From NCBI GenBank assembly GCA_027038505.1, contig JALVWC010000008.1, positions 1-57,319 on the forward strand: a stretch of 57,319 nt of DNA, given 5' to 3'. Shown piece after piece: positions 1-11,770 of the stretch; position 1 is the first letter of the stretch, and each line of letters opens with the position of its first letter. The position numbers and the translations under genes are program-made. The notes below the pieces were generated by a model, which searched no databases, was not told where the DNA came from, and worked only from the letters and a program-made list of their open reading frames with translations. This stretch comes from Nanobdellati archaeon. Its GTDB lineage: Archaea > EX4484-52 > WAPT01.

Positions 1-245
1 GGATCGGGATGGTCGATGTTTGAGACGATTTGATAGACTTTCTCGGCTAATTCATCGTTAAGCCAAGGATTTATTCTTTTTATAGCTGAGATGAAACGCT
101 TTTTGAGGATAACATCTCTATATGATTCCCTTTCTTTCTCATCGAGAGTTAGATTAGAACCGTGAACATGTTGATAACCCAAGCTCTTGAGAACATTTAT
201 CGCGTGATTTTCGACCATGTATTCTTCGGTTAGCTGTGCACTCAT
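1..245 (-). CDS. hsdR: Type I restriction enzyme R subunit, N-terminal 81 codons only (continues past window start)
   Basis: Not in the ORF track. My reverse-complement translation from ATG 245..243 gives MSAQLTEEYMVENHAINVLKSLGYQHVHGSNLTLDEKERESYRDVILKKRFISAIKRINPWLNDELAEKVYQIVSNIDHPD. This matches the usual HsdR N-terminus pattern (LGY, ERESY, RINPWL). ATGA start/stop overlap with the upstream gene; hsdM/hsdS context. Confidence 0.75.
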   Translation of the reverse strand, partial: MSAQLTEEYMVENHAINVLKSLGYQHVHGSNLTLDEKERESYRDVILKKRFISAIKRINPWLNDELAEKVYQIVSNIDHPD

Positions 246-733
246 ATTGGATCACTTTTTTCTTTAATTTCGTGTCTTATCAGTCTATATACTCTTACTA
301 GAGATATTATGACATTTACAATCAAGAATCCAACTGAATAAAATAATAAAAACTTGAGAATTGTTGAAACGGAGTCGAGATTTGATAAAATTAAACTTAA
401 TATCAGTATGAAAATAGCAATTAGTGTTGTCATAGAAATTGTTGAGTTTATGTGTTCAAGGTATTCGATTTTCGTTCTTTGATTACTCTCTGTTCTTTCT
501 AAGCTATAGTAAACAACCATCATAAGATTCAAAAGTAAAGGTATCAGTATGGCAGATACATTAATAAAATTGTTATAAAACCCTGATTCATCTTTTATAG
601 TAAGGATGAAAAGGAAAGATAAGGCAAATGGAATTATGACTAAAGTGATAATAAACGGTATGAGTTCAAAGTCCTTTTTCATGTGTTTGTAGTAATCATA
701 TATGATTTCAAAGAAGTTGATTGGAGCGTACAT
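242..733 (-). CDS. Small integral membrane protein, 163 aa, four predicted TM helices, no recognised family
   Basis: Four hydrophobic stretches of 20-23 aa: LIPFIITLVIIPFALSFLFILTI, INVSAILIPLLLNLMMVVYYSL, ISMTTLIAIFILILSLILSNL, ILKFLLFYSVGFLIVNVIISLV. ATGA overlaps at both ends (731..735 and 242..245), so it is translationally coupled inside the hsd operon. Confidence 0.7.
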   Translation of the reverse strand: MYAPINFFEIIYDYYKHMKKDFELIPFIITLVIIPFALSFLFILTIKDESGFYNNFINVSAILIPLLLNLMMVVYYSLERTESNQRTKIEYLEHINSTISMTTLIAIFILILSLILSNLDSVSTILKFLLFYSVGFLIVNVIISLVRVYRLIRHEIKEKSDPI

Positions 734-1538
734 CAGTCTCCTCCAATATCTCTTATCTCTTTTAATAATTGCTCAGCTTCATATTTTATGTTGTTCACGT
801 TCTCTACTTCCACCCAAGTTCGAAGTTTTCCCTTAGTAATATTAATGGTACGTTGACTTCTACCAACTTTCACAACGATACTGATCTCCTCATTTTCATC
901 ATAGATACACCCAATATCGCTTAAATTATTGTTTTCAAATGCCTGCTTTATTTTATTTGCTAATTGTAAAAACCTGTTTCTCTTTGATTTTATTGAAACT
1001 TCTACATACATCTCATCTTCATTTTCAATTTCCACTTTCTCTAATCTCCTATCCACATCTGTTGGCTTTTTTGGTATTTTTATCTTAAATTCCATTATCG
1101 GGTTATTCAACAACCCTTTTAATCCAAGAATTACAGGTTCTATTTTAACATCTAAACCCCAATCTTTAAGTGCACATGAAAAAATTGATCTTACGCCAAT
1201 ATTGCCTATCCTTTGAAGTATAAGATACCCCCTTCTGGTGCTGTTGTCATACTCAATAAGGTAAAAATAATCATAAAGTGGTGATTCGTTTGGCTCAATT
1301 GTTTTAGTTATTTGTTGAGTGTCTACATTTACAACTGGACTTTTTGCACCATATCTGCCATATTGAATACAACCCCATGCCTTGTTATCTCGGATGTTTA
1401 CTGAGTTTAATATGAGAGTAGTTTGGTCTTGGTCGTCTATATATCCATTCCTTTGTTATTTTGTAAGAAATTTAAGAAGTCTTGCTCACTATCTCCAACA
1501 ATTTCAAATCTATATGGAGCCAAGAAGTTTCTTGGCAT
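733..1538 (-). pseudogene. Frameshifted orphan protein (~268 aa if repaired), no recognised family
   Basis: ATG at 1538..1536 lies 1 nt after the hsdS stop and opens MPRNFLAPYRFEIVGDSEQDFLNFLQNNKGMDI*, with the stop at 1439..1437. The -1 frame is open from 1455 to the stop at 733 with no ATG/GTG/TTG before 1113, and reads ..GYIDDQDQTTLILNSVNIRDNKAWGCIQYGRYGAKSP..LLNNPIMEFKIKIPKKP.. The track lists only its last 126 aa (733..1113). Confidence 0.6.
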
Positions 1539-1539
1539 C

Positions 1540-2784
1540 TTACAACCCCTCCACTCTCAGTCTGCCAAACACTAACTGAGGCAGTAGTGTATCCTGAATC
1601 TTTTTTAAAATTATTATTTCTTTCTGATTATTTATTATTTTCTTGAAGATAGGTTCGACGAGAAAATGGAAGCGTTGAAGGATCGATTGTGGTGGAAGCA
1701 GAATCTTAATACTTTCCAATTCAGGCTTTGTTATAGCATCAAAGGTAGTTCCTCTTTCAAAGGATTTTAAAATTTCATTATATGTCTTCAGATAAACATA
1801 TAAAAATGTCCAAAATTCACTTCTTAGGGCTGCTATGCCCCTTCCAATGACATATTCTCTATCTGCAATATTTAGCTCTCCCACGGGTGCTCTTACAGTT
1901 ACCAATATATCAAATGGTTTTGCCATCTTGCTAATTTGGGTGCTATATGTATCTGTATGTGGTGTATATTGTCCAAACTGCCCCTTTCCCTGAATAAATG
2001 GCAACCCTCTTCCTTCTTGGTTATAGTATTTAGAAGGTGGAGATTGCCCCATTATAACTTCAGCTATATTTTTTAACTCTCTGATTTCCCAACCCTTTGG
2101 AATCTCCATGTCCAGCTCCTCGTTATAAACGAACTCCTCATCTTGGAAAGGCTCAAAATCGATGAACCAGCTTTTGAATATCGCCATCGCCATCTTTTCC
2201 AGAATCTCGTTCTGCTTGCGTTTGTTCTCTATGAGGTCGTCGAACCATGAAAGAACGGTTGCGATGCGGGTTTGTTCTTCTGGGGGTGGGTAAGGGATTT
2301 CCAACTGTTCTAAAGCGTCTTTGGGCACACGTTGCCTCCCACTTGTACCAGTCATAGTATATTGCAATCCTTCTCTAATAACTGGAAACTTAAAAAAATA
2401 GAACAGGTAAAGTAAATCCACCATATCGTCTTTTGGAAGGATTGAAAAGACTTCAATCGTAGCTACCCACTTATAATTACTCTCTTTTGGAACAATACAG
2501 CTTTTTCCATGCTCAAACGATGGGGTTATCTTAGCTAATAGTAATGAACCTGAGAAAACCTCAATTCCGCTTTTTACTTCATTTGGATTCTTTACCTCAA
2601 ATTTTGGGTAAAGACCATCTTCAGGAATATTTTCCATGCTGATGAATGCGATTGGCTTTTTGTCAGTATTTCTTGGTTTTTTATTAATTTTAATAACCTT
2701 TCCGAGTTCCTTAGTCTCCCAATCCTTCGGCATCTCCCCAATCTCCGTTTCCCTGAACTCCATTTCCCATCTGAATTTGACCAT
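1540..2784 (-). CDS. hsdS: Type I restriction-modification specificity subunit (two target-recognition domains)
   Basis: 414 aa with two repeated halves. Conserved central helix EEQTRIATVLSWFDDLIENKRKQNEILEKMAMAIFKSWFIDFEPF and C-terminal helix IINNQKEIIILKKIQDTLLPQLV. GGAGGT SD 7 nt upstream of the ATG. Confidence 0.9.
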   Translation of the reverse strand: MVKFRWEMEFRETEIGEMPKDWETKELGKVIKINKKPRNTDKKPIAFISMENIPEDGLYPKFEVKNPNEVKSGIEVFSGSLLLAKITPSFEHGKSCIVPKESNYKWVATIEVFSILPKDDMVDLLYLFYFFKFPVIREGLQYTMTGTSGRQRVPKDALEQLEIPYPPPEEQTRIATVLSWFDDLIENKRKQNEILEKMAMAIFKSWFIDFEPFQDEEFVYNEELDMEIPKGWEIRELKNIAEVIMGQSPPSKYYNQEGRGLPFIQGKGQFGQYTPHTDTYSTQISKMAKPFDILVTVRAPVGELNIADREYVIGRGIAALRSEFWTFLYVYLKTYNEILKSFERGTTFDAITKPELESIKILLPPQSILQRFHFLVEPIFKKIINNQKEIIILKKIQDTLLPQLVFGRLRVEGL

Positions 2785-2797
2785 AAACCTCTACCTC

Positions 2798-3460
2798 CTA
2801 TGAGCGGTATATATTCAACGCTTTATCCGGTCTTATTATACGAATATTATATGCATCACGTAAAGCTTTGTTCAGCTTTGTAAGGTATCCATCCATCGTA
2901 ACAAAATAATCTGTGTCTTCAAATATCGCAGTAGTGAGAAGTAGTGCGTCCTGGGTTGTCAGTTCGGGATTGTAGAAAATTAAGGAAGAATATACCTCAA
3001 AGAAATCTGGAAATGCTGAAGGAGTGGCAGTTGGTATAATTCCTATAACTTCCGTCCTAAATAATACATCAAATCCTTCTAACGTAAGTTCATATATCCT
3101 CTTTCCAACTTTTTCTGGGATAGTTGCCTCTCGTGTTTCCCGTCGTGATATCCATCTCGAAAGAGGTATCCCTTTATTAAGCATAATTACCGTTCTAGCT
3201 TCTTCTCGAACTCCAGAGAAAATTTCACTCAGTGAAAACTCCACTACTACAACATCTTTATTCTCTCTTGGATTTGATAGAACATAGTCAATAAATCTAA
3301 CTGACTTTTCATATCTTTTATCATATACTCTCTTGAATTCAGGAGATAACTTCTGCTCGGTGATTATGTAACCTATTATCTTATGGGACATCAACCAATG
3401 AACTAAAACATTACTGTCTATGACAAATCTGGTCATTTCTCTTTTAGCTATCTCGCTCAC
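2798..3460 (-). CDS. PIN-domain protein (putative ribonuclease), 220 aa
   Basis: The acidic residues are spaced as in PIN domains: FVIDSNVLV, VVVEFSLSEI, TTQDALLLTTA, YFVTMDG. GTG start overlaps the stop of the upstream micro-ORF (GTGA at 3457..3460). An alternative start is M9. Confidence 0.7.
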   Translation of the reverse strand: MSEIAKREMTRFVIDSNVLVHWLMSHKIIGYIITEQKLSPEFKRVYDKRYEKSVRFIDYVLSNPRENKDVVVVEFSLSEIFSGVREEARTVIMLNKGIPLSRWISRRETREATIPEKVGKRIYELTLEGFDVLFRTEVIGIIPTATPSAFPDFFEVYSSLIFYNPELTTQDALLLTTAIFEDTDYFVTMDGYLTKLNKALRDAYNIRIIRPDKALNIYRS

Positions 3461-3603
3461 CCCTTCTTTTTCTTCTTATAGCTCCATAAACCCTTAATTT
3501 GACCTGCTCTACCATATTTTGTCGTTCTTTGTCGGATAGAATAATATTTTTTGGTTACCGGATTGTAGATTCTCTTTTTCTTGGATTTCTTTTTGGCAGT
3601 CAT
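3457..3603 (-). CDS. Unannotated 48-aa lysine-rich micro-protein, possible PIN partner
   Basis: Below the ORF-track size cutoff. My translation is MTAKKKSKKKRIYNPVTKKYYSIRQRTTKYGRAGQIKGLWSYKKKKKG*: 19 of 48 residues are K/R and none are D/E. GGTGA SD sits 6 nt upstream of ATG 3603. The stop overlaps the PIN start. Confidence 0.5.
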   Translation of the reverse strand: MTAKKKSKKKRIYNPVTKKYYSIRQRTTKYGRAGQIKGLWSYKKKKKG

Positions 3604-3668: not shown

Positions 3669-5303
3669 TCATGCCTCCAGCTTATATCCTATATCAACTC
3701 GTTTTTTAATCTCAGTTAATATAGCCCTCTTTCTCATTTTGATAAAGCATTCTATATCATCCCTTAAGAGACAATCAAGAGCTTCTTCGGGTATCAAGTG
3801 AGTCTTCAGAATTTCCTTAACTTTTTCTTTCCCCATACTTTCAATAAGTTCCTTAAAATACTTTGATGGTCTCTTAGAGGATTTCTTTTGATTTGTAGAT
3901 ATTAAGGTTTTTACAACAACTCGATTATCTTTGAACATTGATTTTGGGAAAATATGATCAATTTGAACTTTTTCTATTTCAAATTTTGGTGACTGTCCTG
4001 TTCGGAAGTCCAACGCTCCTTTCAGAGCTATCAAACATAACACTGCCTTGTGAATAGCTGAATAACTACTCTCGACATCTAAGTCCACTTCATTGATATT
4101 GAATTTTGTTATGAAGTTTGGTACTTTGCCATTCAAAATCCATTCTTTGAAATCTTTCAAATCCCTAAATGACTTAGTATCAACCGCTTGGTCATATCTC
4201 TTGGAGAATACTGACGCCCAATACCAGCGGTCTATTTTTTCATAGTTTTCTTTAGTGTCAAGACTATTCTTTTTCAGAAAGTGTATCATTGCAGCCATGG
4301 GGATCAGCATTGTAGTGTATGGCATCCATTTATCAAACTCTAAAACACCATAACTGTCTTTTGTTCGTCTGTATGCTAATTCTAACATTTTACATGCTGT
4401 TTCCCAGTCTCTCTCAAAATCTACTTGAGATAAATTAAGTACATTTGCACGTTTTGGTTCTATCCCCCGTATTAATGCTATTGTTTTGAGGATAAATTCC
4501 TCTTTGACGTACTTTATGAATTCATACTTGCCCTTTGATTGTTTAAGCAATTCTCTTAGTTTTATTCCATGATTATATAATCTTGCAGTTAACAAGTCAA
4601 ACAGAGAAAGTAGAAGCCCAGTTCTATTTATTCTCTCAAATGTTTCCACTATTTTCTCCAAGGGAGTATCCGCAGGCAAGGTGACTACATGAACCTTATA
4701 CCCCACAATTCTACTTGCAATCTTCATTATCTCACGGAATTTGGGGTGATCACTGAATTTTTCAATTATTACATCCAAATCTCGTAGGTCTGAAAAAGCG
4801 ATTATGTTCTCATCTTCTTCTAGCTTTTGAATTTCCTTTCTATAAAAAGTGCTCTTACTAATAACTGCATCTTCCCATTCTCCATTTAATGCTTTCTCAA
4901 TATCAAGGTAAAATCTGTGAGGGTGTCTTGATTCTCTTAATGGTATTTCTGGCTGGTAAAACGCATAAAAGAGAGAAGTTATTCTTTGCTGACCATCAAG
5001 TATAACTTTTACCACCGATTGTATTTTAGCCTGAGGATTGACTTCTTTAACCCCCTCTATAAGCCTTAATGCAAATGGTGCTTCATTAAGCGTTGGATCT
5101 TTGCTGTATGTGGTCTCTAACCATAGAATTGAGTCTATATAGTATCCCCCCACAATAGAAACTAATAATTCCCTAACATCTTCTGGATACCATACAAAGC
5201 TTCTTTGAAAATCTGGTATTACTATTTTTCCTGTATATACCTCCTTTAATAACTCTCGAAGCTCAATCTTGGCAGGATCCATATTCTCAACTCTCCAACC
5301 CAT
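3669..5303 (-). CDS. DUF262 (ParB-like NTPase/nuclease N-domain) plus DUF1524 (His-Me finger) protein, GmrSD-like type IV restriction family
   Basis: N-terminal IPDFQRSFVW and LDGQQRITSL motifs; C-terminal QIDHIFPKS. ATG 5303 overlaps the hsdM C-fragment by 17 nt. An alternative ATG at 5282 lies 4 nt after that stop, with GGAG upstream. Confidence 0.8.
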   Translation of the reverse strand: MGWRVENMDPAKIELRELLKEVYTGKIVIPDFQRSFVWYPEDVRELLVSIVGGYYIDSILWLETTYSKDPTLNEAPFALRLIEGVKEVNPQAKIQSVVKVILDGQQRITSLFYAFYQPEIPLRESRHPHRFYLDIEKALNGEWEDAVISKSTFYRKEIQKLEEDENIIAFSDLRDLDVIIEKFSDHPKFREIMKIASRIVGYKVHVVTLPADTPLEKIVETFERINRTGLLLSLFDLLTARLYNHGIKLRELLKQSKGKYEFIKYVKEEFILKTIALIRGIEPKRANVLNLSQVDFERDWETACKMLELAYRRTKDSYGVLEFDKWMPYTTMLIPMAAMIHFLKKNSLDTKENYEKIDRWYWASVFSKRYDQAVDTKSFRDLKDFKEWILNGKVPNFITKFNINEVDLDVESSYSAIHKAVLCLIALKGALDFRTGQSPKFEIEKVQIDHIFPKSMFKDNRVVVKTLISTNQKKSSKRPSKYFKELIESMGKEKVKEILKTHLIPEEALDCLLRDDIECFIKMRKRAILTEIKKRVDIGYKLEA

Positions 5304-7097: not shown

Positions 7098-7622
7098 TTA
7101 ATTGTTTTTAAACTTCGCCTCTCCTTTTTTCTTCTTGGCATTCTTGCTCTTCTTTTCTTCCACGAATGGAGGTCTATCGAGATGGATAACATAATCTGCC
7201 GCATGCTGTAACGCTTTGGAAAAAGCGGGTTCCCTGCCTATGATTATCACTTCCTTGCCGTGTTCCTTTGCTTTGTGAACGAGAGGTAAAAAATCCGCAT
7301 CTCGTGTTGCTACAGCAATTATGTCTATGTCCTTTCTGTGCACAGCATCCATGCACTCAACCGCAAGATAAACATCAACATCAGCGGTCTCATCTTTTAT
7401 TTTGCTCATGCCGATGACGGGCTCGAAGCCCTCGTTAGCCACAGCTTCTATCAGCTTTTCTGGAGCATACTGGTTAAGAAAAGCCTTGGCTATAACCACC
7501 TTACCATACTTCTCAAGTTCATATTTCAGCTTCTGGAGGTTGACCTTGAATTCCTTGCGCAGAATGTTCGGGCCATCCATAAACACAGCTATTCTTTTTT
7601 TTCTCCGAAGAAACCTCATCAT
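7098..7622 (-). CDS. NYN-domain (LabA/DUF88-like) protein
   Basis: IAVFMDGPNI, DVDVYLAVECMD, IIAVATRDADFLPLVHKAKEHGKEVIIIG. I prefer ATG 7622, which has GGGTGGT SD 5 nt upstream, over the track start at 7655. Confidence 0.7.
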   Translation of the reverse strand: MMRFLRRKKRIAVFMDGPNILRKEFKVNLQKLKYELEKYGKVVIAKAFLNQYAPEKLIEAVANEGFEPVIGMSKIKDETADVDVYLAVECMDAVHRKDIDIIAVATRDADFLPLVHKAKEHGKEVIIIGREPAFSKALQHAADYVIHLDRPPFVEEKKSKNAKKKKGEAKFKNN

Positions 7623-8061
7623 AAATACCACCCGTAAATTCTGATTTCTCACCAATCTTTATAATTTTAGCAGGTTATATGAAAAGAGCTCTTACCGTTT
7701 ATGCTGCGCTCCTCTCAGCAAAGAACTTAATCCAATGTATGCTGCAGAAGGCCGCGGATCCAAGTATATAGATAATTTCCAAGAATTCCCCCGTATCTTT
7801 GAGAAATGGCAGATTCTTCATCAGTAGCTCTCCCTGTGGTTCAGATTGTTACGATTTTGGATGTGTGGCTGGTGGAATCCATAACTCTGTCTTTTGCGTT
7901 CTCTGGCAAATCATTGAATTCGTATCATTATGCTTTCCTGTTGCGAGGTCCATCGCATTCCCTTTATTCTTCACTCAACTCCGCAGCTTTCTGTTCGTTT
8001 TCCTGCAGTCCGGATGCAAGATCACAGAACTCCTGCAGGGTTCCCAGGATCTCCGCGCATT

Positions 8062-9351
8062 TTACTTCCTGCTCACCTCCACTTCCATAACCACCTCTTC
8101 ACATAAACTTCTCGTTGCTGCGCTTGCCACTGTGCTTAGGTCCTCATCCTCAACCGCAGTCTTGATGTTACTGAGGTCTGTTTCAATCTTCGGAAGGTAA
8201 AGCTGAAGGGCAACCTCGACATCATCGCATCCAAGCTTTTTCGTGTAGGGTGTGGCTGAAACGGCTCTCAGAACCGCCGGATGTACCGCCTCTCTCTCAA
8301 TCGAAAAGTCCGCTATCGGAGCTTTCGGTATGTTCAGCTCTCTGGCCATCGTTTCCTGAAGTTTAAGGGCCTGAGCGGGCTGGAACTTACCTCCGGGGAG
8401 GCCGTCCCTGACAACATAAATGGCTTCTGGATTGTACGCAAGTGTGGAATGTATCAGGTAATTGTAGGCTTCTCTTGCTGTTATCCACGGCTTTATATCT
8501 TTTAGCTCTGATATGCTTATCTCTTCCTTTTTTTCCGTTTTTCTTGCAGGACGTGCCGTTCTCCTGTCCACATCAATGAGGTAAAGCACCACCTTACCTT
8601 CTGTCTGGGAGACCCACACACCCTCTATGTAAGGTTTCCTTCCGTCCTCCACATCATCGAGAAGATGTGATGCCACATTTCTGTAAACATCCGCAATACT
8701 GCTGTAATTGGCCTCTCCGTCGAGCTTTTCCTCCATAATGCTCCTGTGAAACTCGGGCAGCGGTTCTTGCTTTTCTTTTATGCTCGTCCCGAAGTAGGAC
8801 TCGAGCATTTTCGCTTTATCCCTGTTCAGCTTTAGACGGTGTGCTTCCAGAGGGTGCATGTCCCTGATGGAAGCTATGCCGACTTTTTTCAGATCCATAT
8901 CGTAATCCTTTCCGCCGTCAGCCATGATTATTTCCGCATAGCATCTCTTCTCGATGTTCTTGCTGTGCATGACATCAATGGGTAATGATGGCAGTGATAC
9001 CTTGTATTCAATCCCGAGATCCCCAGTCAGATGGTTTCCCACCGCTTTACACACTTCCAGCAGCACCGCATGCTCCAGCTTACATGTTGGTAGCTGTCTG
9101 CCGAATAGCAGCGTTACATCCGCATCGCCGTCCAGCACCCCGCTTTTATACAGCCTGTCCTGAATTTCTGAAAAGGTGAGAGAAGTGTTGCAGTAATTTT
9201 CCATCCAACCGTCGATGATCTTTTCAATCTCATTGCCGTTCATTCTCTTTTTCTCCACGGTTTTTTCCAGATCCTTAATACCGGTGATATACCTCACAAC
9301 GTTCTCGCTATCCACTCCGACCACCTCCGTGCTTGAGTTTTTGAAGAACAT
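8062..9351 (-). CDS. Hypothetical protein, 429 aa, acidic, no family recognised
   Basis: Long uninterrupted ORF with protein-like composition. No SD seen at ATG 9351. Antisense ORFs in the track are short. Confidence 0.6.
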   Translation of the reverse strand: MFFKNSSTEVVGVDSENVVRYITGIKDLEKTVEKKRMNGNEIEKIIDGWMENYCNTSLTFSEIQDRLYKSGVLDGDADVTLLFGRQLPTCKLEHAVLLEVCKAVGNHLTGDLGIEYKVSLPSLPIDVMHSKNIEKRCYAEIIMADGGKDYDMDLKKVGIASIRDMHPLEAHRLKLNRDKAKMLESYFGTSIKEKQEPLPEFHRSIMEEKLDGEANYSSIADVYRNVASHLLDDVEDGRKPYIEGVWVSQTEGKVVLYLIDVDRRTARPARKTEKKEEISISELKDIKPWITAREAYNYLIHSTLAYNPEAIYVVRDGLPGGKFQPAQALKLQETMARELNIPKAPIADFSIEREAVHPAVLRAVSATPYTKKLGCDDVEVALQLYLPKIETDLSNIKTAVEDEDLSTVASAATRSLCEEVVMEVEVSRK

Positions 9352-9990: not shown

Positions 9991-10068
9991 GGTCCGGTAG
10001 CTTAGCCTGGTCGGAGCGCCCGCCTGATAAGCGGGAGGTCGGGAGTTCAAATCTCCCCCGGACCACCA
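9991..10068 (+). tRNA. tRNA-Ile (anticodon GAU), CCA encoded
   Basis: Hand-folded cloverleaf: acceptor GGTCCGG/CCGGACC; D stem GCTT/GAGC; anticodon stem CCCGC/GCGGG with loop CTGATAA; variable AGGTC; T arm GGGAG-TTCAAAT-CTCCC; discriminator A plus CCA. Total 78 nt. Confidence 0.9.
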
Positions 10069-10109
10069 GAACCATGCCATGAATATCTGATGCTCTGGAT
10101 TTATGAAAT

Positions 10110-10180
10110 TTGTTCTTGATATAAGAACAAATATTCTCAAAAAGAGAACAAAGATTTAAAATGTTTTTAAGATAAGAACA
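10110..10180 (+). promoter_or_regulatory. Operator-like AGAACA repeats plus TATA box upstream of the wHTH-MNT gene
   Basis: TTGTTCTT-GATAT-AAGAACAA palindrome at 10110..10130. Further AGAACA copies at 10145..10150 and 10175..10180. ATTTAAAA at 10154..10161 lies ~28 nt before ATG 10186, which suggests a leaderless start. Confidence 0.45.
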
Positions 10181-10185
10181 TATAC

Positions 10186-10741
10186 ATGCTACCGGAAAGT
10201 GTGTGGCCTATTTTGGAGTATTTTTTTGATCACCCCTACGAAGAGATTCATATAAGGGAAATCTCAAGGAGACTTAATCTCACCCCATCTTAATTCCCTA
10301 CATATCAAAAAGAGCGTGGATAGATTGATGGAAGAAAACTTGCTTCTGGAGAAACGCTATGGCAGAATGCGACTGGTAAAAGCTAACGTGGAAAGTGCAT
10401 TTTTCAGATACCTTAAGCTGGCATTTACCATCCGTAAGATGGAGAGGTCGGGCATGCTTGATTTTCTCAAGAAAAACATCCCCGCGGTTTCGTCTATTGT
10501 TCTCTACGGCTCAGCAGCCAGAGGTATGGATTCGATCGAAAGCGATATTGACATATTGGCGATAGGTGGCAGAAAGCGTTTGAATCTCTCGGAATTCGAG
10601 GAGAAAGTTAACAGAAGGGTACAACTCATCGTGATGAGTTGGGGTGAATGGAAAAAAACTTACAGGGAGAACAGAGCGTTCTACACAGAAGTGATAACCC
10701 GCGGTGTGCCGTTATTTGGTGATCTTCCGGTGATCGAATGA
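10186..10741 (+). pseudogene. wHTH plus minimal nucleotidyltransferase (MNT antitoxin-type), frameshifted after the wHTH
   Basis: 10186..10293 encodes MLPESVWPILEYFFDHPYEEIHIREISRRLNLTPS*. The +1 frame continues ..PHLNSLHIKKSVDRLMEENLLLEKR.. into the track ORF 10316..10741, which carries LYGSAARGMDSIESDIDILAIG (GSxxRG..DxD). The shift sits next to the CCCC run at 10283..10286. Confidence 0.7.
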
Positions 10742-11165
10742 GGTTGGATGATTGCTTTAGAAGAAGGCTTTTAAGAGCTGACAGGCCGGATAAGAAAAAG
10801 GCCGGGAGATCGGTTGAGATCGCTGAGGAAAAACTTAAAAGAGCTGTTATGTTCCTGAAGGACGGTATTTATGATGCATGTATCCTTTATGGCTATATGG
10901 CCATGTTTCATGCTGCGAGGGCCATCCTTTTTAAAGATGGATTGGTTGAGAAAAGTCACGCGTGCCTGATAGCCTATCTCAGAGAAAAATACAGCTCCAT
11001 AATTCCGGCCGGTATTCTAAATGCTATGGATGCATACAGGCTGGAGAGACACGAGGTGATGTATGGGATGGGTTCAGAATAGTGCGCGATGATTGCGAGG
11101 CTCTGGTGGAGGATGCTGAAAAGCTCATCGAGCTCGTGAGAGATCTTCTGGAAGGAAGAGGGTAA
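10738..11165 (+). pseudogene. HEPN-domain protein (toxin partner of MNT), C-terminal helix displaced by a frameshift
   Basis: 10738..11082 ends ..AYRLERHEVMYGMGSE*. The adjacent frame (track ORF 10962..11165) continues ..DGFRIVRDDCEALVEDAEKLIELVRDLLEGRG, the expected HEPN C-terminus. ATGA overlap with the MNT gene. Confidence 0.65.
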
Positions 11166-11206
11166 TACACACCGTTAACTTTATTAATACCCACGACCCT
11201 AATTCT

Positions 11207-11770
11207 ATGAACATGACAATGTACGAGATCACCATTCTTGGTAGAGGTGGACAGGGAGCTGTAACCTCGGCTTATGTCCTTGCAAAAGCGGCCTTTCATG
11301 ATGGGATGGAGGTGCAGGCGTTTCCGTTTTTCGGGGTTGAAAGGAGAGGCGCACCGGTCATGTCTTTCTGCAGGATAAGCGATGAGCCCGTAAAGCTCAG
11401 GGAACAGATCTATAAGGCAGATTACTTCATTGTGCTGGATCCCGCACTTCTCTCGAGCGTGAATGTGCTTGAAAGAGTAAAAGACCACGGAGAGATCATA
11501 GTGAATTCTGCTCACTTCCCGGAAAAGCTCGGAAAAGCTGAAGAGAAGGGAGTAAAGGTCAGCTATGTGGATGCCACGGAAACCGCTCTGGAAATTATAG
11601 GAAAACCCTTCGTGAACATCATAATGCTCGGAGCCTTTGCAGCCATATCCAAATTGGTAACGCTGAATGCTCTCGAAAAAGCCATAGAGGAGCACTTTTC
11701 CTCAAAGCCTGAAGCTGCCGAGCTGAACAAAAAGGCCACCGAAGTCATCTTCAAAGCTCTTCAAAAGTGA
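11207..11770 (+). CDS. porG: 2-oxoacid:ferredoxin oxidoreductase gamma subunit (pyruvate or 2-ketoisovalerate type)
   Basis: ILGRGGQGAVTSAYVLAKAA motif; first gene of a four-gene gamma-delta-alpha-beta operon. Confidence 0.85.
   Translation: MNMTMYEITILGRGGQGAVTSAYVLAKAAFHDGMEVQAFPFFGVERRGAPVMSFCRISDEPVKLREQIYKADYFIVLDPALLSSVNVLERVKDHGEIIVNSAHFPEKLGKAEEKGVKVSYVDATETALEIIGKPFVNIIMLGAFAAISKLVTLNALEKAIEEHFSSKPEAAELNKKATEVIFKALQK

Follow-up and report, generated by a model that had tools for sequence, protein, structure and literature searches.

At the start of contig JALVWC010000008.1 (NCBI GenBank assembly GCA_027038505.1), from a Nanobdellati archaeon, two small genes lie between hsdS and hsdR of a Type I restriction-modification (R-M) operon (Table 1). 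Coordinates refer to the whole 57,319-nt stretch, hereafter the window, in which all features of the R-M island are on the minus strand and the gene content is archaeal (proteasome-activating nucleotidase, 536 bits, plus a PorA_Arch match). The upstream gene encodes a soluble protein of 268 amino acids (aa) once a single frameshift is repaired, and the downstream gene a 163-aa protein with four transmembrane (TM) helices. A previous reading made from the sequence alone had proposed that they form a cytoplasmic sensor and a small membrane effector of the abortive-infection type. In this study, we provide evidence that the pair is a putative RexAB-type cassette distantly related to gp30/gp31 of mycobacteriophage Sbash, and that its place ahead of hsdR is a recurrent arrangement in archaea.

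The three genes from hsdS to hsdR are tightly packed. A single spacer base (1539) separates the hsdS stop (TAA, 1542-1540) from the ATG of the soluble gene at 1538, and the stop of the membrane gene overlaps the hsdR start as ATGA (245-242), both as the sequence-only reading had described; the junction between the two genes themselves, also described as ATGA, proved to be TGATG, with a 1-nt overlap at 733. GGAGG-like Shine-Dalgarno motifs, read from the sequence, precede the first two starts. Pfam likewise bore out the hsdS and hsdR flanks (Methylase_S, E 8e-30; HSDR_N, E 3e-8).

Table 1 Features of the R-M island at the start of the window
Feature	Position	Strand	Evidence
hsdR start (first 81 codons; gene runs off the window)	1..245	-	Pfam HSDR_N, E 2.9e-8
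Putative RexB-like (Sbash gp31-like) four-TM membrane protein gene, 163 aa, intact	242..733	-	Open reading frame, homologues, AlphaFold, Foldseek, hydropathy
Putative RexA-like (Sbash gp30-like) soluble sensor gene, 268 aa once repaired; pseudogene as sequenced	733..1538	-	Frames, homologues, family profile
N-terminal piece of the sensor gene in the present sequence (33 codons before TAG 1439-1437)	1437..1538	-	Translation
Frameshift site in the sensor gene, GGAAT vs GGAAAT in relatives	1447..1451	-	DNA comparison with L035, L036 and L010; protein alignment
hsdS, stop TAA 1542-1540	1540..2784	-	Pfam Methylase_S, E 8.4e-30
GmrSD_N + HNH protein gene, 544 aa, Type IV-like restriction enzyme, between hsdM and hsdS	3669..5303	-	Pfam GmrSD_N, E 9e-26; HNH_4, E 9e-7
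hsdM, split by in-frame TAG (5601-5599) into 430 + 101 aa	5287..6891	-	Pfam N6_Mtase 2-251 in first piece, 260-308 in second

As sequenced, the soluble gene is broken. The frame opened by ATG 1538 reads MPRNFLAPYRFEIVGDSEQDFLNFLQNNKGMDI and ends at the TAG at 1439-1437. The second frame, open from 1455, ends with the stop at 735-733 and contains no ATG, GTG or TTG before 1113, thus it is not an independent gene. One inserted base fuses both frames into the 268-aa protein, carrying the reading frame to 733 as previously supposed, and 14 intact homologues (266-284 aa, 39-90% identity) align with this repaired protein from end to end. DNA alignment with relatives located the lesion as the loss of one A in the window (GGAAT at 1451-1447 against GGAAAT). 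Programmed -1 frameshifting was considered and rejected: all 14 homologues are single open reading frames (ORFs), the difference is a simple loss of one A, and no X-XXY-YYZ slippery heptamer is present.

The pair is not confined to this genome. In addition to the 14 soluble homologues, the membrane protein has 12 homologues (45-100% identity), and in near relatives with readable contigs the two genes are always adjacent and in the same order. Chance ORFs are ruled out, because both ORFs and their pairing are conserved in many independent contigs. A search of 1.84 billion representative sequences with the profile of the soluble window subfamily (hmmsearch) retrieved 798 clusters at E<=1e-3, of which 232 reached E<=1e-10 and the best about 6e-23; these are clusters at 50% identity from both Bacteria and Archaea, and most members are about 300-315 aa long. 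A genome scan with this larger family gave 19 loci, including Caldisericaceae, Terriglobia, Dehalococcoidaceae, Binatia, Bacteroidota, Chloroflexi, Gemmatimonadetes, Methanosarcinales, Methanothrix and others. Three of the 19 were uninformative (contig end or fragment); ORF maps of the other 16 showed in 14 cases an ORF of 165-221 aa with four TM segments that follows the soluble gene, overlapping it or within about 70 nt, and two had no intact membrane partner. These distant partners align with the window membrane protein and have four motifs in common with it: (K)IN..I..D at the N-terminus, LLxNLL in TM2, NIS or STIS in TM3, and (K/V)R(I/V)(H/Y)xL..E, with the invariant arginine R147, after TM4.

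Members of the family also occur on phages and other mobile replicons. A pair of 311 and 179 aa adjoins the repressor of the Pf inovirus PfAC16 of Pseudomonas (L032, 412-1883), where it fills the accessory-gene slot and is annotated as hypothetical proteins only. The soluble gene, the only one compared in this case, matches two Clostridium plasmids and two IMG/VR viral contigs, and the phage contig ctylc9 has both soluble-like and membrane-like proteins among the Foldseek matches. Scans of viral contigs returned no relatives of the archaeal subfamily and only two of the distant family.

Known defence models did not recognise the pair. Both window proteins gave sub-threshold noise only against Pfam, NCBIfam and PADLOC (AbiJ_NTD5, E 0.06; Cas5a, E 0.04; PDC-M50A, E 0.11), no recurrent family was found when 10 and then 147 family members were scanned against Pfam and PADLOC, and 25 membrane partners gave nothing significant against PADLOC. 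PDB sequence searches with family profiles found only de novo designed proteins, at or near threshold (profile A3, E 0.002-0.004; profile A6, E 0.07-0.16).

The relation to characterised systems emerged from comparison of profiles. gp30 of mycobacteriophage Sbash and gp44 of the Gordonia phage CarolAnn, each with a four-TM partner, are experimentally shown RexAB-like defence systems (PMC6426596, PMC12894663). The A6 profile, a 147-sequence alignment of the larger soluble family, matched Sbash gp30 with an hhalign probability of 97.2 (E 4.6e-11), CarolAnn gp44 with 96.4 (E 1e-9, 288 columns) and a gp30+gp44 mini-alignment with 97.2, while reversed-sequence controls gave 0.2-0.4. The soluble component is thus, at the level of sequence profiles, homologous to the validated RexA-like sensors gp30 and gp44. 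Like the window pair, Sbash gp30/31 and CarolAnn gp44/43 consist of a soluble gene followed by an overlapping or abutting four-TM gene. They differ in that gp30 and gp44 are longer by about 100 aa (372 and 370 against 268 aa), that pairwise similarity is undetectable without the broad family profile, and that they are actinobacterial prophage genes near an immunity repressor, whereas the window pair is archaeal and lies between hsdS and hsdR.

The predicted topology of the membrane protein is comparable. Hydropathy showed four hydrophobic segments, at about 28-46, 56-74, 98-116 and 128-152, and the AlphaFold model (predicted local distance difference test, pLDDT, 88.6) has an N-terminal helix followed by four long helices, in agreement with the four TM helices read earlier. 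Basic residues cluster at the N-terminus, in the TM2-TM3 loop and after TM4, a charge distribution that predicts an N-in, C-in topology with a cytoplasmic central loop; this is the published topology of gp31 (PMC6426596) and that predicted for the Sbash and CarolAnn membrane proteins. The top Foldseek match of the model in BFVD was a 165-aa Sbash protein (probability 1.0, E 4e-3, TM-score 0.55), similar in size to the window protein. Its length, the genome annotation and the alignment in Fig. S2 of PMC6426596 identify it as gp31, which is thus the closest structural counterpart among viral models. Within the membrane family, juxtamembrane cytoplasmic residues and the TM helices are the most strongly conserved.

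The link to RexA of phage lambda itself is weak. The A6 profile and a 22-sequence RexA alignment gave a collinear hhalign match with a probability of 24-36 (E 4e-4 to 8e-4), and the probability over all family comparisons with this alignment was only 8.5-36; the match aligns I-E-P at the hinge (window E134-P135, RexA E135-P136) and a K-x-K-R-N strand. Direct comparison with the single lambda RexA and RexB sequences was not significant. Neither PF15969 (RexA) nor PF15968 (RexB) matched the window proteins at E<=1 or any of the 147 family members at E<=10, and lambda RexA and RexB themselves, taken as a control, score 327 and 305 bits against these models; strictly, then, the window proteins are not members of the lambda RexA/RexB Pfam families. 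In the soluble model a beta domain (1-135) is followed by an alpha/beta insert (140-244) and a helix at the C-terminus (248-265). As modelled, this plan resembles that of RexA, in which a split globular domain (1-139, 248-279) is interrupted by an alpha/beta dimerisation domain at 143-234 (PMC11077077). The paper on the RexA crystal structure reports a common fold for RexA, RdgC and Iml3/Chl4 (PMC11077077), and these published structural relatives of RexA, Iml3/Chl4 and an RdgC-like protein, are also the nearest folds of the window model, the latter among the viral-model matches (E about 1e-3, TM-score 0.28-0.37 over the best matches). The gene order agrees as well, rexA (279 aa, soluble) preceding rexB (144 aa, four-TM). 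On the other hand, the window soluble protein is acidic (isoelectric point 5.4), and the pair lies in a chromosomal Type I R-M operon rather than on a prophage beside an immunity repressor, although ORF1/ORF2 of the distant PfAC16 pair does adjoin a phage repressor.

The window pair has the RexAB architecture in the broad sense, with two neighbouring genes in the same orientation that encode first a soluble protein (268 aa after repair) and then a four-TM protein of 163 aa. Profile homology to gp30/gp44, the structural match to gp31 and the conservation of the pair support in kind the sensor and membrane effector proposed by the sequence-only reading. We therefore regard the two genes, which lie inside an archaeal Type I R-M operon, as a probable two-component cassette of the RexAB type that serves abortive infection (growth arrest) and belongs to the Sbash gp30/gp31 lineage, and put the probability of this reading at roughly 0.6.

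Several observations weigh against it. The soluble gene is disrupted in this genome. The window subfamily by itself (15 sequences of low diversity) does not detect gp30 (hhalign probability 0.2), and the link is transitive, running through the larger family that the subfamily's own profile detects. The membrane family showed no significant sequence-profile similarity to gp31, gp43 or RexB in hhalign, and significant matches were likewise lacking in PADLOC, among PDB sequences and to the RexA and RexB models of Pfam. The soluble model has an overall pLDDT of 73, with a low-confidence C-terminal half (45-63); its top PDB match, Iml3-Chl4 (4je3, E 1.3e-3), has a TM-score of only 0.28, which is not significant, and the RexA structure 8TWQ is outside the top 50 Foldseek matches. 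Experimentally studied members of the family come only from phages of Actinobacteria.

By analogy with lambda RexAB, Sbash gp30/31, CarolAnn gp44/43 and RexABpp of Pseudomonas putida, a mechanism may be proposed for the cassette, in which sensing, activation, membrane depolarisation and defence are all carried over from these experimentally studied relatives. In the Sbash and CarolAnn systems both genes are required for defence, the proposed mode is that the sensor triggers opening of the four-TM protein and membrane potential is lost, and residue exchanges within gp31's central cytoplasmic loop abolish defence (PMC6426596); RexABpp (PP_5643/PP_5644) behaves like these two systems, and for PP_5643 a probability of more than 90% to the RexA structure 8TWQ has been reported. 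The cytosolic 268-aa protein would sense a cue of virus infection (a protein of the virus or a DNA-protein intermediate) and once activated would engage the conserved cytoplasmic face of its four-TM partner, putatively the N-terminal helix, the TM2-TM3 loop and the R-x-x-R-L-I-R-x-E tail. The partner would then oligomerise or open, membrane potential and ATP would collapse, and virus replication would stop. The cassette may be co-transcribed and translationally coupled with hsdS and hsdR, and in that case its synthesis would accompany that of the restriction enzyme, adding a second defence layer.

The position in the restriction operon recurs, as the sequence-only reading had anticipated in tying the pair to it. 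Among 13 distinct contexts of the archaeal subfamily, the pair is inside a Type I R-M operon in eight (the window, L035, L010, L044, L039, L008, L041 and L005), following hsdS, other embedded genes or both, and is directly upstream of hsdR wherever the downstream gene is readable. The overlap with hsdR is ATGA in L005, L008, L010, L035 and L039 as in the window, a count that leaves out L040, a shorter contig with the same gene; it is 14 nt in L041 and 20 nt in L044. Placement ahead of hsdR is kept down to 39-41% identity. The remaining five contexts have no hsd genes: a pT26-2-like integrated element (L001), the chromosome of Thermococcus sp. 18S1 (L004), and loci near a Dam-like methylase (L009), adjoining PIN and MazE-like genes (L037) and adjoining an OLD-family nuclease (L045). 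Embedded and free copies are interleaved in a neighbour-joining tree of the subfamily.

In the wider family the neighbours are heterogeneous, comprising housekeeping genes together with some R-M, RmrA and mad2 matches, and a Type I methylase was found once among 97 neighbours; thus embedding in Type I operons is a trait of this archaeal branch and not of the whole family. Homologues do not sit consistently in housekeeping contexts, and the mixed neighbours of distant members assign no housekeeping role, because the cassette inserts as an autonomous unit. Its coupling to restriction is established only as a conserved gene arrangement.

Some individual loci are of interest. In L010 the bases ahead of the soluble gene (4680-4692, TTGTAAGATG) repeat exactly the 3' end of hsdS and the junction found in the window; hsdS is not adjacent to the soluble gene there, a PDDEXK_10 gene and reverse-strand genes lying between them, and these bases may be a remnant of rearrangement or shuffling of hsdS. 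In L001-L003, around 10001-11329, a 59%-identical pair lies amid T26-6p-type genes of the pT26-2-like integrated element, followed by a Trypsin_2 protease gene, so the cassette also travels on archaeal mobile elements. In L045 (765-4135) a 42%-identical pair lies directly downstream of the OLD-family (AAA_15/AAA_21 + TOPRIM) nuclease gene, a neighbour of the defence type.

An anticodon nuclease gene, that of PrrC in the EcoprrI system, is known between hsdS and hsdR and is the established example in which a Type I enzyme both harbours and controls a second line of defence. PrrC is almost exclusively embedded in Type I R-M systems (Payne et al. 2024). The candidate cassette resembles it as an abortive-infection-type gene at the same place of the operon, in the window and seven further independent contexts; it differs in having no sequence relation to PrrC (no PADLOC match) and in its proposed effector, a membrane protein and not an RNase, and any control of the pair by the R-M complex would be hypothetical. 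Defence genes embedded in Type I operons have been documented in a guilt-by-embedding survey (10.1101/2024.01.29.577857), and TgvAB of VPI-2 in Vibrio cholerae is likewise a two-gene defence cassette interrupting a Type I R-M operon (PMC11411939). TgvAB belongs to the Type IV restriction systems and is unrelated to the window pair, which had no match in PADLOC-DB v2 including the PDC candidate families. The GmrSD-type gene embedded in the window operon recalls the TgvAB genes of the V. cholerae operon, and GmrSD-type genes are also found within the same operon in L005 and L039. Kiwa too pairs a four-TM protein (KwaA) with a soluble protein of about 310 aa (KwaB); identity with Kiwa was rejected, since the gene order is opposite and no Pfam or PADLOC model of DUF4868/KwaB or KwaA matched.

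How the cassette relates to the restriction enzyme, and which of its proteins acts, may be seen differently. In Thermococcales-like archaea the pair might be an integral second layer of the Type I system, a guard in the style of PrrC/EcoprrI that is silenced by, or monitors, HsdM2S/HsdR or its DNA products and fires membrane collapse when a virus disables or evades restriction; we consider this full scheme rather unlikely, and a functional guard relationship between pair and restriction is speculative. The position directly upstream of hsdR, with the ATGA overlap conserved in five independent R-M loci besides the window and down to 41% identity, would suit an accessory factor of the Type I enzyme, such as a membrane anchor of HsdR/M2S or a factor for restriction alleviation, rather than an independent defence. 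The five of 13 subfamily contexts that lack any hsd genes, the heterogeneous neighbours of the wider family with Type I genes once in 97, and the homology to stand-alone prophage defence genes all speak against such a factor, which we regard as very improbable. The roles of the two proteins might instead be reversed, as in the Butters gp30/gp31 Rex-like pair, which has been described as working so (PMC12894663), or as in a toxin-antitoxin module: the soluble protein would be the toxic or antiviral effector, the membrane protein would only sequester it, and the pair might mainly stabilise the R-M island. Movement of the pair as an autonomous two-gene cassette into unrelated contexts fits this idea, as does the window, where the soluble gene is lost but the membrane gene kept, a state tolerable if the soluble protein is a toxin. 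However, the homology is to gp30/gp44, whose systems depend on both genes and have the membrane protein as proposed effector (PMC6426596), and conservation of juxtamembrane cytoplasmic and TM residues suits an active, channel-like membrane protein; we judge reversed roles improbable, and prefer the RexAB-type cassette with the four-TM protein as putative effector.

The state of the window copy is a separate matter. With the soluble gene frameshifted and hsdM interrupted by an in-frame TAG at 5601-5599 (reading …LYTPISRR*NVMTDEHI…), which splits the N6_Mtase domain, the locus is probably inactive as sequenced, and the Type I system in the window is likely inactive if the sequence is right. It is slightly better than an even chance that the locus is merely a decaying relic, or that its lesions are assembly errors, so that nothing functional can be said of this particular copy. 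The one-base deletion in the soluble gene and the TAG inside the N6_Mtase domain both point that way, as does the protein collection, in which an intact, 100%-identical soluble protein is absent while an identical membrane protein is recorded on two contigs, a contrast that suggests a lesion present in the assemblies rather than a one-off error. On the other hand, no lesion is present in the membrane gene, hsdS, the GmrSD gene or the visible part of hsdR, and the soluble gene has a single lesion and is otherwise 90% identical to an intact relative, thus any inactivation of it is recent. A recently inactivated copy is the most likely state of the locus. This question bears on the activity of the window copy, not on the identity of the cassette.

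By the count of a paper of January 2026 (PMC12894663), only five RexAB-like systems had been described, all in bacterial prophages. An archaeal host and a place inside a Type I restriction operon are a new setting for a RexAB-type system. By our profile comparisons the Sbash gp30/gp31 lineage belongs to a large unannotated two-gene family, with 798 clusters from many bacterial phyla and Archaea and no Pfam, NCBIfam or PADLOC model; a single archaeal branch of it is lodged in Type I restriction operons, just upstream of hsdR. The pair is therefore a candidate abortive-infection, membrane-effector defence for archaea, and the family offers material for new detection models in defence-finding tools. 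The recurrent physical coupling makes a functional link between restriction and abortive infection experimentally testable; should the guard scheme be true, this would be the first abortive-infection membrane effector described in archaea.

The rest of the island contains further genes. A 220-aa ORF (2798-3460, minus strand) without a Pfam match resembles a PIN protein on visual inspection (VIDSNVL N-terminally, TMDGYL C-terminally) and overlaps a very lysine-rich 48-aa ORF (3457-3603, minus strand). In L008 and related operons DUF4411/PIN-like and ImmA/IrrE genes occupy the position of these two ORFs, which may be a small toxin-antitoxin-like pair. The G+C content is 32-41% across the R-M island (1-8 kb) and 42-52% in the rest of the window, and a tRNA-Ile(GAT) gene lies at 9991-10068, about 2 kb past the change; together these suggest a horizontally acquired defence island, possibly inserted at tRNA-Ile. 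A 429-aa ORF at 8062-9351 had no NCBIfam match. The island is bordered by an NYN-domain gene (7098-7655, minus strand) about 55% identical to two tandem NYN genes of Thermococcus sp. 18S1, which are found some 3 kb away from that chromosome's free copy of the pair (L004), and this hints at a shared chromosomal neighbourhood.

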